Below are positions 19,842 to 27,181 of a stretch of DNA of 64,000 nucleotides, piece by piece. The stretch is from Escherichia coli. Its GTDB lineage: Bacteria > Pseudomonadota > Gammaproteobacteria > Enterobacterales > Enterobacteriaceae. Position 1 is the first letter of the stretch, and every line of letters starts with the position of its first letter. Location of the stretch: NCBI RefSeq assembly GCF_003334335.1, contig NZ_QOWQ01000012.1; one strand, given 5' to 3'. The position numbers and the translations under genes were made by a program. The notes under the pieces were generated by a model. It was not told where the DNA came from, ran no database searches, and worked only from the letters and a program-made list of their open reading frames with translations.

Positions 19842-21392
19842 TCACAAATGTTGCTCGGCCCAGCGTAAGAAATCTTCTTTCGGTAATGCCTTGCTGTAGA
19901 GCCAGCCCTGACCGTAGTGCACGCCATGCTGGCGTAACCACTCTTCTTGTTTACTGGTTTCGATTCCCTCCGCTACCATTTTCAGTTTCAGTGTTTTTGC
20001 CATTTCGATGATATGCGGCGTGACATTTTTATATTCCAGCGCATCAACGAAAGATTTATCGATCTTCAGAATGTCGACATCCAGATCCTGTAAATAACTT
20101 AAACTTGAATACCCCGTACCAAAATCATCAAGATAAATTTCATGGCCCGCCTCCCGGTAGCGAGAAATTATCGGGGCGCTGGTTTTCGGATCGGCAAACT
20201 CGCGTTCAGTGAGTTCAAGCGCGATCTGTCTGGGATTAACCTGATAGTGATTGATCATGTCACGCAGCAATTGCGGGATTTTTTCCGAGGTGAGCACGGG
20301 GGATTCAAGATTGATCGAAATATGCTGCTGTGGATGCTGACGCAGCCAGTCGCCCATATCTTCAAAGACGCTTCTTATAATCAGTAGCGTCAATGGCTCA
20401 GAAAGGCCCGTTTGCTGTGCCAGCGGAATAAAACTATCTGGTGACAACCAACTACCGTCTGTCTGCGGCCAGCGCGCCAGTGCCTCAGCACCGACAATTT
20501 TGCCATTGGCTAAGGAGACAATCGGCTGATAGTGCACGCAAATATCACGATTTTCGATAGCATCCTGCAGCCGATGATGCGGTGACTGAATACGGCGCAA
20601 AATACGCAGCACAAACATCGCTGCCAGCAGGCCAATCACCAACCCGAGCGGTAACCAAATAAAGACTTGCCGATGCCAGCCTTTCTGCAACATTTTCGTT
20701 GAAGCCCATGTGATGATCGAAATATTCATCTCCGGTAAGGGCAGGATATCGTAAATGATTCCATTATTTTCGATATGCTCACCGGGTGTTTTTTGTAGCC
20801 TGGTAATAATTCCCTGAGCAATTTCATCGCTGCTGGTTATGACAACGTTATGGACATTGCCAATAATGGCGGCATCAATTTGCCATGAGCTATAGGGAAT
20901 GACATCAATAAAGGAAGCGGGGTCGATCATGACGACATAATGTGCCGTTCCCATGGCGACCATGTAACGGATAATGCCTAAATCGTTATGCGATGTTAAC
21001 CAGACACGATAACCATCTTTCGAAATTTTACCTGGCTCGGGGAAGGTATCGGGCGGACTTTCATGCTCCAGAGACGAACACTGGGGAACGTTGTTATCGA
21101 TATAAGCCACTTCCTGAATATAGCGATAACTGTAAGATACCCGACGCATTTCCATGAGATGGGCTTCGCTACAGGCAGCGCCTTGCCATCTTTCCAGCTC
21201 CTGCAGCGCATCTTTCCCTTGTGTCGCCACCTTATTGGCTCGAATAGCGACGCGGGAGGAATAGGTATCCAGCTCTTCAATAAACGATGTTTCTACCTGC
21301 TGATGGGCCAGCCAGATGCTTAAGCCGACAGGCAGCAATACTGAAAGAATCAGTACTCCCGAAATAAGGCCGACCAGATGTCGTGTTCTCAC
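19842..21392 (-). CDS. pdeB: c-di-GMP phosphodiesterase PdeB (YlaB), CSS periplasmic sensor plus EAL domain
   Basis: ORF with N-terminal TM helix and C-terminal EAL domain (motifs EALxR, DDFGTG). The track starts at ATG 21398; I prefer GTG 21392 (516 aa) because an AAGG SD sits about 6 nt upstream of it. The start is uncertain by 2 codons. Confidence 0.88.
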   Translation of the reverse strand: MRTRHLVGLISGVLILSVLLPVGLSIWLAHQQVETSFIEELDTYSSRVAIRANKVATQGKDALQELERWQGAACSEAHLMEMRRVSYSYRYIQEVAYIDNNVPQCSSLEHESPPDTFPEPGKISKDGYRVWLTSHNDLGIIRYMVAMGTAHYVVMIDPASFIDVIPYSSWQIDAAIIGNVHNVVITSSDEIAQGIITRLQKTPGEHIENNGIIYDILPLPEMNISIITWASTKMLQKGWHRQVFIWLPLGLVIGLLAAMFVLRILRRIQSPHHRLQDAIENRDICVHYQPIVSLANGKIVGAEALARWPQTDGSWLSPDSFIPLAQQTGLSEPLTLLIIRSVFEDMGDWLRQHPQQHISINLESPVLTSEKIPQLLRDMINHYQVNPRQIALELTEREFADPKTSAPIISRYREAGHEIYLDDFGTGYSSLSYLQDLDVDILKIDKSFVDALEYKNVTPHIIEMAKTLKLKMVAEGIETSKQEEWLRQHGVHYGQGWLYSKALPKEDFLRWAEQHL

Positions 21393-21555
21393 CAGCATAT
21401 CCTTATTAACACAGTGTAGGGAAAGTATATCTGATTGTGGAAAAAGGCTGGCTGGAGATAAGGAGGTAGAGCTGGTATTTCATGAAGTGATGGGTGGAAA
21501 CGATCATTGTCATTTGACCAGGCGCAGAGCTTTACGCCTGGTATGTAACCCTAAC

Positions 21556-22026
21556 TTAAGATGTTGATTCGGCGCGAGCGAGGGTAAAAATATCGTAAAA
21601 AGACAGTTCACCTTTACGGACGATCATTTTTTGCAGTTGTTCCTTATGAACATCCGCGACACGCGGAGAGTTCAAGATGGCTTCAACCAGCGCGGCAGGT
21701 ACAAAGCGCGTGTTGTACCATTCGCCGTTATAGCAAACGCGGAAATCCAGCACGTCGATATCTTCATAGCGGTAGCGTGGGTAGACATCGAAAAAGAAGA
21801 AACCATTAAGCAGGATAAATAATACAACCAGTAGCCAGACAGAGCCTGACAGCGTTTCGGACTGCAACATCACCGCCAGGGTGGCAAAAAAAGCAACGTA
21901 CATACCGATAAACAGCCCCGGATGTTTACGGATAAAACTGATACTAAAGCGGGGTTTGTTGTCGCGTTTTTCGCGGGTATTCAGAGACTCAATCGTTTCG
22001 GTCAGCAGGCGTTGTATTTCGGTCAT
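21556..22026 (-). CDS. ylaC: Uncharacterised inner-membrane protein YlaC
   Basis: 156-aa protein [27 protein letters not shown] with two predicted TM helices; the ORF track starts 13 codons upstream. Confidence 0.88.
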
Positions 22027-22141
22027 CGTTTGCCTTCGTGGTATCTGCAACTTTCCAGGGAACACCCTATTTTAACGTGGGAATAGTAGAGGGGAAGTAA
22101 CAGATCTACCACAATTTTGCATAACAGTTGCGAAAAACCGA

Positions 22142-22693
22142 TTACAATTTTTTAATTATTCTGGCTGGATTACCGCCCACGACAACGTTGTCCGGGACAT
22201 CTTTTGTGACAACTGCACCTGAGGCTACCACGACGTTATCACCAATGGTCACACCAGGGTTAATGACCGCGCGTCCGCCAATCCAGACGTTATTACCGAT
22301 GGTGACGGGTTTCCCCAGTTCAGCACCGCTATTACGTGCTACAGGGTCGATGGGATGTGTTGCCGTGTAGATATGAACGCCTGGTGCCAACATACAGTTA
22401 TCACCGATGCGAATAGGGCAGACATCAAGCATCACGCAATCGAAGTTGGCGAAAAAATTATTACCGAGAAAAATGTTATAGCCATAGTCACAGCGAAACG
22501 TTGGCTCAATATAAGCCTCTGTCACCTGACCGAATAGATCAGCGAGAATTTGCTGGCGTAATGTGTGCTCTTCCGCCAGGGAATGATTGTATCGGTGAAT
22601 AAGCTGACGAGCGCGCAGGCGATCGCGAGATAACGTCTCATCTGCCGAGCGATACAACTCACCAGCAATCATCTTTTCTTTTTCTGTGCTCAT
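22142..22693 (-). CDS. maa: Maltose O-acetyltransferase (hexapeptide-repeat acyltransferase)
   Basis: 183-aa [24 protein letters not shown] with left-handed beta-helix hexapeptide repeats. Confidence 0.94.
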
Positions 22694-22864
22694 TACTGAC
22701 CTCCGGTTGCTGAAAATGCGGCAACACAGTAAGACGAAAAGTCAGTGAAGAGAACGTTCCCATTACATCTGTGTGATAAAGATCACATAGGGTATGTCTT
22801 CATGGCGAAAAAGTATAAAATTCTTAATAAACAGCCGGTTATAGCTCCGAAAGCGAATTATTTA

Positions 22865-23083
22865 TTAGCGAATAAATTTCCATACTGAGGAAGGGATCTT
22901 GTCGTACAGTTTATTCATGGTCAATTCGGCGAGGCGGTGATCTGCGGCTGAGTAAAATACCGCCAGTTCATTATCTGATAATTCGTATTTATTTTTCTCG
23001 ATAACACGCTCCAGCGTGTCAATTGTCTGGCAACGACGTAAACGCATTAAATAATCGGTTTTCGTTAAAGGTTTTTCGGACAT
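22865..23083 (-). CDS. hha: Haemolysin expression-modulating protein Hha (H-NS co-regulator)
   Basis: 72-aa protein [72 protein letters not shown] from ATG at 23083; the track's 154-aa ORF is an N-terminal over-extension running into tomB. Confidence 0.95.
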
Positions 23084-23108
23084 ACTTCTACCTATGGTTG
23101 TAATAATT

Positions 23109-23483
23109 CTAACAAGATAAACTCGCAGGATTCTCTTTCGTCGCATTGACAAAACAACGGAATAGTCGATTACCTGACTTCCGCCATTTCTGAAGATCCT
23201 GCATATTAATACCATAACTACTGAACAACATAAAGGTGTCATCCAGATATTCGTCGATCTGCTCAATGAGCTTATTGTCTTCATTATACTTAATTTTGTA
23301 ATTAAGTGCGAAGGTCGCAATATGCTCAATCAGTTCATTCAACTGGAGGTTGATCGCCGAGGTTGGGTCGTTTACCCAGCCATGATTGCTTTCTTCAAGG
23401 TTTGCAAGGCAGTCATGATACAGGGTTTCACAGAGAAACTTAAGCTGTGCGATATCATGTCTTTTGGGTGAGTATTCATCCAT
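23109..23483 (-). CDS. tomB: Hha toxicity modulator TomB (YbaJ)
   Basis: 124-aa [39 protein letters not shown], 25 bp upstream of hha on the same strand. Confidence 0.94.
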
Positions 23484-24028
23484 AACGCGTCCCCTTCTTA
23501 GCGGTTGAACTAACGGACACCTTTCGGGATGGAAAAAACTTACTGACCTGGACTTGCCCTCTCGTTTGTTAGCTTAACTATAAGCCACTCTTTGCAGGTT
23601 TTCATCGCATTATTACGAAAAATTACAATTAGGAAGGAAGCGGGACAGGACTCATTTTTTCATACTAGCACTAACCCGCAGCAGGTAAAAGCAGTTTGCT
23701 CGAACTATTCATAACATTTCAGGATTATCGCCAGATGAAATTGGTGACACTAATACCAGGATTGCTCTGAATATGACGTAATAACCGAGGAATGAATAAA
23801 GAATTACCGCAAATAATTAAGAATAGCCTCTAAATGATTATGGATTATTAAATCTATTAGCGCTACTTAATATAAATTAACTAACAATCAGTATTTTTTA
23901 TGAATTTTATCCGTGGTTAATACTGGTTTTCGTATGAGATCCTGAGTTGGTGGTTCAATTACTCCTTAATGTTCGTAGGTTATGCATAAAAAAGGCCGCT
24001 TACGCGGCCTTAGTGATTACACGTTGTA

Positions 24029-27181
<3,153 letters not shown>

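Follow-up and report, generated by a model that had tools for sequence, protein, structure and literature searches.

The AT-rich tomB-hha operon beside acrAB in Escherichia coli: a locus that is probably old and core, with a long control region

Does a sharp drop in GC content beside a conserved efflux operon mark a piece of foreign DNA, and what occupies the long noncoding region that shares in the drop? The question matters because Hha, a partner of H-NS, has a part in how strongly virulence and foreign genes are silenced, and control of tomB-hha feeds into that network. An earlier note on a 64,000-nucleotide stretch of Escherichia coli DNA (here, the window) proposed that the hha-tomB segment and the 545 bp upstream of it are a horizontally acquired or H-NS-silenced island next to acrAB, possibly with an unannotated small RNA or peptide in the upstream region. 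We identify the interval as the tomB-hha operon of the E. coli chromosome with a long AT-rich control region, largely known already. For E. coli itself the analysis brought no surprise: this is an ordinary locus whose genes, gene order, and promoter hexamers match the published tomB-hha (ybaJ-hha) operon of K-12, with no difference.

All genes of the locus lie on the minus strand: maa (22142-22693), hha (22865-23083), tomB (23109-23483), the 545-bp gap (23484-24028), and acrB (24029-27178). By K-12 annotation and translation, hha encodes the 72-aa H-NS co-regulator; tomB (ybaJ), in the ORF list and the K-12 annotation, encodes the 124-aa Hha toxicity modulator, whose homologues carry Pfam PF10757 and which is 90-100% identical across 80 species. 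The names given earlier to tomB, hha, and acrB are correct. Sequenced E. coli chromosomes match the interval at 100% identity from end to end, and the K-12 reference (NC_000913.3) has no annotated feature within the acrB-tomB gap.

The AT-richness reported for the segment and its upstream gap was confirmed by sliding GC calculation. Positions 22694-24028 average 39.0% GC where the window as a whole averages 52.2%, and are in effect the lowest-GC stretch of their size in the window: only 0.18% of the segments of equal length fall at or below 39.0%, the minimum being 38.6% for the one that starts at 22661. The gap stands at 37.6%, its distal portion (23701-24028) at 33.5%, hha at about 40.6%, tomB at 40.5%, and acrB at 54.0%. 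Two A/T-rich strings quoted from the gap were located at approximately 23795-23826 and 23868-23901. Within tomB and hha, GC is depressed at all three codon positions, and GC3 is 0.45-0.46 compared to a median of 0.60 for the long ORFs of the window. The GC dip is real and lies far beyond chance expectation.

To read this composition as foreign origin, with H-NS keeping the genes off, is quite improbable in light of where the locus occurs. It is present in 5,425 of 5,426 complete E. coli genomes. A species survey gave 268 species matches, from which 80 Enterobacteriaceae loci in more than 20 genera were kept, and the order acrB-gap-tomB-hha-(maa)-ylaC, with its orientation, was found in 80/80 of them, barring short contigs and some losses of maa. 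Cronobacter and Mangrovibacter have the same gene order, the latter without maa, and Erwinia and Providencia retain the hha-ybaY-tesB neighbourhood. Median protein identity is as high for TomB (93.4%) as for AcrB (92.7%), compared to 77.8% for Maa and 77.9% for YlaC. Core presence, conserved synteny, and a TomB that diverges no faster than AcrB speak against a recent island beside acrAB.

Low GC at every codon position of tomB and hha would suit a foreign origin, but in the 72 species measured both gap length (435-559 bp) and low gap GC (35-40%, compared to 51-58% in acrB) recur without exception, and the relative deficit holds in surroundings from 39% to 55% GC; in Providencia, a 525-bp gap of 28.6% GC sits within a 39% GC locus. 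Since every species examined shows this deficit against its own genome, composition is no sign of recent arrival. Mobile DNA does touch this gene family. An hha paralogue occurs alone on about 1,400 plasmid records, mostly conjugative, a large plasmid branch of the Hha family that would favor the island reading, and IS1 copies, which might be taken the same way, are inserted in the locus in some strains. The IS1 insertions, however, are strain-specific, later events, and among the plasmid records checked tomB and its leader were not found on true plasmids, only hha having plasmid paralogues there. A plasmid or phage origin of the leader was also considered and rejected, since the records it matched at full length, though filed as plasmids, were of chromosome size or derived from chromosomes. 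Nor does the K-12 annotation show integrase, tRNA, or repeat borders around the locus. Thus, of the marks of an island, atypical composition was found, and patchy distribution, a synteny break, and mobility borders were not. A GC plot shows an island-like dip here, yet tomB-hha should be left out of counts of genomic islands. We hold with considerable confidence, as one part of an explanation judged as a whole, that the arrangement is old, vertically inherited in Enterobacterales, and core; the low GC of genes and gap would then be kept by selection or a locus-specific bias and would not be a trace of recent transfer. The operon may have been acquired at the root of Enterobacterales, and that would be no island in the operational sense.

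The H-NS half of the earlier proposal fared better. For the gap scan we used TCGATAAATT, which we take to be the high-affinity H-NS consensus; one match with two mismatches was found, inside the CpxR-type box described below, but matches of this kind abound in the window, and the scan was uninformative. In a genomic-SELEX study, one table entry records an in vitro H-NS site for the tomB/acrB spacer and gives no position (PMC3946193). This in vitro binding, which would also sit well with an island, makes H-NS involvement plausible; the word "silenced" proved too strong, as the operon is expressed and stress-induced. Its expression and inducibility in the wild type disfavor full silencing. The H-NS-bound promoters of core genes such as proU, bgl, and hns offer a closer parallel, tomB likewise having AT-rich upstream DNA and an in vitro H-NS site overlapping the spacer of a sigma70 promoter. 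Set against those AT-rich promoter regions, the tomB-hha locus is not xenogeneic and the genes under control encode an H-NS partner, so that any H-NS/Hha action would be feedback and not the silencing of foreign DNA. On the preferred reading of an old core operon, the approximately 385 bp of very AT-rich DNA from terminator to promoter core, with its in vitro H-NS site, may serve as a platform for damping of the promoter by H-NS, probably in concert with Hha itself, and may hold further upstream sites.

The remark that the gap is longer than a minimal promoter requires was borne out: a terminator, a core promoter, a CpxR-type box, and conserved distal elements could be placed along the 545-bp leader. 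At its acrB end, the terminator scan placed an intrinsic terminator, AAGGCCGCGTAAGCGGCCTT followed by a T-run, at 23984-24011 on the minus strand, starting 17 nt past the acrB stop codon. It has an 8-bp stem with six G-C pairs, followed by TTTTTTAT, and the hairpin and T-run are conserved in 23/23 genus representatives; at this strong, conserved element acrAB transcription ends. Compared to other genera, Escherichia has an additional ~50 nt after this terminator and degenerate distal elements.

At the other end lies the main tomB-hha promoter, P1, which the promoter scan placed at 23577-23605 (minus strand) with a -35 hexamer ATGAAA, a 17-nt spacer, and a -10 hexamer TATAGT that is invariant in 72/72 species. 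The same two hexamers are listed as a constitutive RpoD promoter of tomB-hha with a sigma70 SELEX site (PMC3946193), a sigmaS ChIP-seq peak spans P1 (PMC4447067), and an RNase E study used a tomB/hha transcript running from -89 to +662 (PMC4191395). P1 is the promoter that drives tomB-hha; indirect start-site evidence puts the 5' end about 89 nt before the tomB ATG, and P1 is bound by sigma70 polymerase in vitro and by sigmaS polymerase in vivo. Relatives show an equivalent arrangement: the Salmonella counterpart of P1 is p922, the active tomB-hha promoter approximately 78 bp before the ATG, and Yersinia ymoBA (ymoB-ymoA) has two transcription start sites (TSSs), at -188 and -106 (PMC13353760); TSS2 and a CpxR site about 56 bp farther upstream are the equivalent of P1 and the box that adjoins it.

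The 5' untranslated region of tomB, about 87-89 nt (23484-23572, minus strand), contains the conserved CCATCCCG and a Shine-Dalgarno sequence, AAGGGGA, and reaches a conservation of 0.64-0.85 in the MAFFT alignment. Its E. coli fold was not significant (z = -0.68), no covariation was found within it, and RNAalifold gave only an invariant 4-bp CCC/GGG pairing between anti-Shine-Dalgarno and Shine-Dalgarno bases. A hand-picked hairpin (CCGAA/TTCGG) was discarded, as 65 of 500 shuffles were equally good. Upstream of P1, we read TTTACC-16-TGC-TAGTAT at 23662-23689 (minus strand) as P2, a possible weak second promoter and, in E. coli, a candidate. Of 72 species, 24 have a -10-like hexamer at this position, preceded in 15 by TGn, and in Citrobacter, Klebsiella, and Raoultella it takes the form of an extended -10, TGnTATAAT or TAAAAT. 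The two TSSs of Yersinia ymoBA offer a parallel for a second promoter.

Abutting the -35 of P1 is a CpxR-type box, GTAAT-TTTTC-GTAAT (GTAATTTTTCGTAAT; 23612-23626, minus strand), centered about 48 bp upstream of the TSS. The box is ultraconserved, a 16-mer, TGTAATTTTTCGTAAT, being identical in 69/87 loci, and it is one of just two matches to GTAAW-N5-GTAAW in 64 kb. It agrees with the CpxR consensus GTAAA(N)4-8GTAAA (PMC9603713) at 8/10 specified bases, as a repeat with N5 spacing. RegulonDB names both genes of the operon among the targets of CpxR, and the CpxR iModulon includes tomB; in the study read, tomB is absent from the direct ChIP-exo targets of CpxR (PMC7657598). In Yersinia, CpxR~P binds the ymoBA promoter 56 bp upstream of TSS2 according to EMSA and reporter evidence, and YmoA protein levels are unchanged by CpxR activation (PMC13353760). 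Published data on envelope stress show that a LolCDE inhibitor raises tomB 5.9- and 11.2-fold. In iModulon and RegulonDB membership, and in induction by envelope stress, tomB thus resembles the CpxR-activated promoters cpxP, spy, yccA, and yebE, which share with it tandem pentamers spaced by N5 on the same strand upstream of the -35; unlike GTAAA-N5-GTAAA promoters, both tomB pentamers end in T, and the T variant is invariant across genera. The box would be a CpxR~P activator site that makes the operon responsive to envelope stress.

Farther upstream, most other genera carry a palindrome of the RcsB/RcsAB type, TA[AG]GAATATTC[CT]TA, 300-330 nt upstream of the tomB ATG. At this fixed position, a match of at least 12/14 was found in 50/73 species, compared to approximately 1% of shuffles. 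The published RcsAB box consensus is TaAGaatatTCcta (PMC4325325), and RcsB half-sites are TTAGGAA and cTAAGA (PMC5829831). Held beside the RcsB/RcsAB boxes of flhDC, rcsA, wza, and Yersinia hmsC, the palindrome matches at 12-13 of 14 positions in Salmonella, Citrobacter, Enterobacter, Klebsiella/Raoultella, Kosakonia, and others, and it shares with the RcsB-flhDC crystal structure the half-site types TAGGA and TAAGA with N4 spacing. It is set apart from those boxes by its location, ~225 nt upstream of the P1 TSS and ~55 nt downstream of a distal -10-like hexamer.

E. coli keeps, as the positional orthologue in the alignment, a remnant, TCAGAGCAATCCTG (23757-23770, minus strand), in which all five core bases are intact and one of the six base-contact positions is lost; its 9/14 match is at chance level by count. 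In the E. coli window scan, no RcsAB box of at least 11/14 fell within the gap. The top RcsAB-box match in Escherichia gaps is a weak second sequence, AGAGGCTATTCTTA (23818-23831, minus strand; 9/14), with the counterpart AAAGGCTATTCTTA in Salmonella and Citrobacter. The sequence is common to Escherichia, Salmonella, and Citrobacter, and, judged by its motif match, AGAGGCTATTCTTA alone is no better than chance. The literature searched held no link of Rcs to tomB/ybaJ/hha, and the near-perfect palindrome in other genera is possibly an unreported feature. Induction by the LolCDE inhibitor is compatible with Rcs and cannot separate Rcs from Cpx. Tentatively, and with the odds somewhat against it, the palindrome may be an RcsB/RcsAB operator, predicted from sequence, that would put tomB-hha and, via Hha, the H-NS regulon under Rcs as well as Cpx, and that was weakened or lost in Escherichia. 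Should it prove functional in Salmonella, Klebsiella, and Enterobacter, an H-NS co-regulator would be the meeting point of two envelope-stress pathways.

The -10-like hexamer just upstream of the palindrome, P3, lies ~360-390 nt before the tomB ATG. In most genera it reads TATAAT, TATCAT, or CATAAT, and 60/72 species have a match to TATAAT at 5/6 positions or better within one 15-nt position class. If the operator reading is true, this element could be a second promoter controlled by Rcs or H-NS. The E. coli version, AATAAT (23844-23849, minus strand), is degenerate, and the promoter scan called no promoter at it; the Salmonella equivalent, p622, gave no GFP signal (PMC5133643). The upstream sites of most genera would then include both the palindrome and a distal promoter-like element, each seemingly decayed in Escherichia. 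Beyond P3 lies a distal conserved island, AAATTCATAAAA..CTGATTGT in E. coli (23881-23907, minus strand), with a MAFFT conservation of 0.63-0.71 amid unalignable sequence; the all-species listing gives it in most genera as CTTATTGT followed by GTTTATTT. Closer to tomB, positions 23704-23731 (minus strand) align to a block, GCTAAC-N3-4-ATGA-N4-AAGG, of other genera and are diverged in E. coli. Between such islands, pairwise identity falls to 0.25-0.36, which is essentially unalignable. We infer a regulatory role for the ~300 bp of distal gap. A published PdhR SELEX peak also lies near tomB, with a predicted site of 8/14, a weak motif match.

An alternative for the distal gap, close to the small RNA suggested earlier, is an unannotated sRNA or a long structured leader that starts from the distal element (~23840) and regulates tomB-hha or other genes. 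Its appeal lies in the fixed position of the hexamer, the conserved islands downstream of it, the two TSSs of Yersinia ymoBA, and a transposon insertion in the spacer that was selected during long-term competition (PMC5010248). Yet it is a slim prospect. Rfam at permissive thresholds gave, across 22000-24600, only two sub-threshold matches, both over the acrB terminator, and a gathering-threshold scan of five other genera gave SRP RNA elsewhere in the locus and nothing more. The terminator scan found no terminator within the gap between the distal element and tomB. The search for a small RNA thus yielded neither Rfam match, internal terminator, nor covarying structure; inter-island identity is unlike that of an sRNA; and p622, the only reporter test of an equivalent element, was negative. 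Least credible of all is that the gap codes for a small protein or leader peptide, for although it holds a 21-aa ORF (23540-23605, minus strand), plus-strand ORFs of 24-44 aa, and, in most genera, a conserved ATG in the GCTAAC..ATGA..AAGG block, the 21-aa ORF starts within the -35 hexamer and thus ahead of the TSS, which means that the main transcript cannot encode it. The ORFs from the conserved ATG span 3-46 aa, have no Shine-Dalgarno sequence, and share nothing beyond ~4 codons; the block has no match in E. coli, Leclercia, Pseudescherichia, or Cronobacter, and neither strand of the gap has an ORF whose position and sequence are both conserved.

On the other side of the operon, the hha-maa spacer contains a perfect CRP-type palindrome, TGTGATAAAGATCACA (22772-22787), 86 bp ahead of the maa start codon (ATG). 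The window has no other match to TGTGA-N6-TCACA, taken here as the CRP consensus, compared to 0.06 matches expected. The palindrome probably belongs to maa and not to hha-tomB, and the exact pattern recurs at the same place in 38 loci of other species.

The low GC content of the hha-tomB interval (22694-24028) is genuine, and the operon that shows it is well known. At 39.0% GC against 52.2% for the window, the AT-richness described in the earlier note is borne out: the window minimum lies here, only 0.18% of equal-length windows are as low, and both A/T-rich strings that it quoted are present. Reading along the minus strand, acrB (24029-27178) is followed by an unannotated gap of 545 bp (23484-24028), tomB (23109-23483), hha (22865-23083), a spacer of 171 bp, and maa (22142-22693). 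GC falls to 37.6% in the gap and to 33.5% in its acrB-proximal 328 bp; in tomB and hha it is low at codon positions 1, 2, and 3, with a GC3 of ~0.46 versus a window median of 0.60. Downstream of hha, pdeB, ylaC, and maa (19842-22693) have a GC content of 47-48% compared to 52% for the window, so the dip is nested in a broader, mildly AT-rich neighborhood. E. coli chromosomes carry the interval with 100% identity throughout, and adding 457,225 converts window positions to MG1655 coordinates.

Low GC had been taken as a sign of a horizontally acquired island placed beside acrAB. Of 5426 complete E. coli genomes, 5425 carry the interval. When each species was represented by a single genome, TomB relatives turned up in 268 species. 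The 80 loci retained, from >20 Enterobacteriaceae genera, all share the order acrB-gap-tomB-hha-(maa)-ylaC, save that some contigs are too short for acrB and a few species have lost maa. Across the 72 measurable loci, the gap spans 435-559 bp at 35-40% GC, with tomB at 39-46% and acrB at 51-58%. Cronobacter has the identical arrangement, Mangrovibacter has a longer gap (846 bp) and no maa, and Erwinia amylovora has a few genes between acrB and tomB and retains hha-ybaZ-ybaY-tesB. Conservation of TomB is on a par with that of AcrB (median identities to E. coli of 93.4% and 92.7%) and far exceeds that of Maa and YlaC (~78%). An hha paralogue does occur, at 60-80% DNA identity over window positions ~22856-23065, on ~1400 mostly conjugative plasmids of Escherichia, Salmonella, and Klebsiella. 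Neither tomB nor its leader was found on plasmids in the plasmid collection; the few full-length matches are to entries that have the size of a chromosome or derive from one, and tomB and the leader are confined to chromosomes or chromosome-like records. With near-universal presence, conserved order, TomB conservation, and this chromosomal confinement, the reading as an acquired island fails. Given that order, length, and GC are conserved across species, the low GC is a long-standing trait of a vertically inherited locus, which leaves room for its acquisition in the ancestor of the order. In Providencia, tomB has mltD upstream and hha-ybaY-tesB downstream; the Providencia alcalifaciens leader (comparison locus L089:5476-6000) is 525 bp long with 28.6% GC in a 39% GC locus, a long AT-rich leader kept despite mltD, not acrB, being upstream.

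The gap opens (all features on the minus strand) with the acrB terminator (24011-23984), an 8-bp G+C-rich stem and T-run kept in every genus, and continues through ~385 bp of very AT-rich DNA with short conserved islands. Alignment then delimits an almost invariant block of ~60 nt (~23636-23575) holding the CpxR-type box GTAATTTTTCGTAAT (23626-23612), a -35 hexamer, ATGAAA (23605-23600), and a -10 hexamer, TATAGT (23582-23577), ahead of a tomB 5' UTR of ~87-89 nt that includes AAGGGGA as its Shine-Dalgarno sequence and a conserved element, CCATCCCG. A genomic-SELEX study reports exactly these hexamers (P1) as the constitutive RpoD promoter for tomB-hha (PMC3946193), and a sigmaS ChIP-seq peak lies over them (PMC4447067). 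The tomB/hha transcript used in an RNase E study starts at -89 (PMC4191395), consistent with a transcription start site (TSS) at ~23570-23572. TATAGT is invariant in 72/72 species, and the Salmonella counterpart of P1 is p922, the sole active promoter detected there, ~78 bp upstream of the ATG (PMC5133643). In E. coli FAM21845 (locus L087), a natural IS1 insertion at 23591/23592 sits exactly between -35 and -10, splitting the CpxR-type box and -35 from the -10; another lies within hha (~22978) in E. coli 19213 (L086), and several other strains (H7, H9-H12) likewise carry an extra ~777 bp. Upstream of hha and inside tomB itself, the promoter-like site TTCGCA-18-TATAAT (10/12; 23283-23312, minus strand) may be a promoter for hha alone; the SELEX paper also reports an RpoD binding site, of unstated sequence, between the two genes (PMC3946193).

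The box beside the -35, GTAAT-N5-GTAAT, agrees with the CpxR consensus GTAAA(N)4-8GTAAA (PMC9603713) and is best read as the known CpxR input. It is one of two GTAAW-N5-GTAAW matches in 64 kb; 69 of the 87 loci compared share the exact 16-mer TGTAATTTTTCGTAAT, and Erwinia has GTAATTTTTAGTAA at equal distance. Both tomB and hha appear as CpxR targets in RegulonDB; tomB belongs to the CpxR iModulon and is missing from the ChIP-exo direct targets of that study (PMC7657598). CpxR~P increases the activity of the Yersinia pseudotuberculosis ymoBA promoter and binds it 56 bp upstream of TSS2 (PMC13353760), and inhibition of LolCDE, which activates Cpx, Rcs, and sigmaS, increases tomB 5.9- and 11.2-fold (PMC5105897). 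The P. alcalifaciens leader has no CpxR-type box; it carries a direct repeat, TAGTGATAATCT x2, 27 nt apart and ~130-160 nt upstream of the tomB ATG. Elsewhere in the window, a perfect CpxR consensus, GTAAAAGTCCGTAAA (54245-54259, plus strand), lies in the copA-glsA spacer, ~90-105 bp before the start codon of copA.

Two further suggestions, a link to H-NS and extra regulatory elements in the gap, were partly right and largely already published. The tomB/acrB spacer does carry one of 987 in vitro H-NS sites (genomic SELEX, PMC3946193), but "silenced" overstates the case because the operon is expressed and inducible. We infer modulation, possibly feedback via Hha/H-NS; an H-NS motif scan was uninformative.

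The one new lead is an RcsB-type palindrome conserved outside Escherichia. An alignment built without a motif in mind yielded, as distal conserved pieces, CTTATTGT…GTTTATTT, a block GCTAAC..ATGA..AAGG, and a 14-bp palindrome. The last, TA[AG]GAATATTC[CT]TA, matches the RcsAB box TaAGaatatTCcta (PMC4325325) at ≥12/14 positions in 50 of 73 species versus ~1% of shuffled gaps, and in the flhDC co-crystal RcsB contacts the two half-sites found here, TAGGA and TAAGA spaced by N4 (PMC5829831). It lies 300-330 nt from the ATG, except in Pseudescherichia and relatives (~230 nt), and its mean pairwise identity is 0.74, a value somewhat inflated by anchoring, versus 0.25-0.36 in the flanks. Cronobacter and Mangrovibacter have a weaker version in the same place. 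A literature search on Rcs with tomB, ybaJ, and hha found no link, and we regard the palindrome as a candidate, apparently unreported RcsB-type site in other genera. The orthologous E. coli sequence, TCAGAGCAATCCTG (23770-23757, minus strand), keeps all five core bases and matches at 9/14, which is chance level; it is vestigial at best.

Other distal elements resemble promoters. A -10-like hexamer, another conserved piece in this alignment, holds a fixed position in 60/72 species (E. coli AATAAT, 23849-23844), and its Salmonella equivalent, p622, gave no GFP signal (PMC5133643). At ~85 bp upstream of P1, Citrobacter, Klebsiella, and Raoultella share a clade-limited extended -10 (TGnTATAAT or TAAAAT), reminiscent of the paired TSSs of Yersinia ymoBA (PMC13353760); the E. 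coli counterpart, TGCTAGTAT (23670-23662, minus strand), marks a possible second promoter.

A hidden small RNA or peptide, also proposed for the gap, found no support: there was no Rfam match in E. coli or five other genera, no terminator within the gap by terminator scan, and no covarying structure in the tomB 5' UTR. The only sense-strand ORF of ≥20 aa in the E. coli gap (21 aa) begins within the -35, ahead of the TSS; in other genera, the frames opened by a conserved ATG (3-46 aa) have no Shine-Dalgarno sequence and show no relationship beyond ~4 codons. Just past the acrB terminator, ~50 nt found only in Escherichia (23929-23983, minus strand) include, read by eye, AAGGAG and, 3 nt later, a TTG-initiated 13-codon frame that is nonconserved and probably without meaning.

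The CRP consensus is TGTGA-N6-TCACA. A perfect palindrome of this type, TGTGATAAAGATCACA (22772-22787), lies in the hha-maa spacer, 86 bp ahead of the maa start codon. The 64-kb window contains no other match (0.06 expected), and the exact pattern occupies the equivalent place in 38 other-species loci, which suggests cAMP-CRP control of maa.
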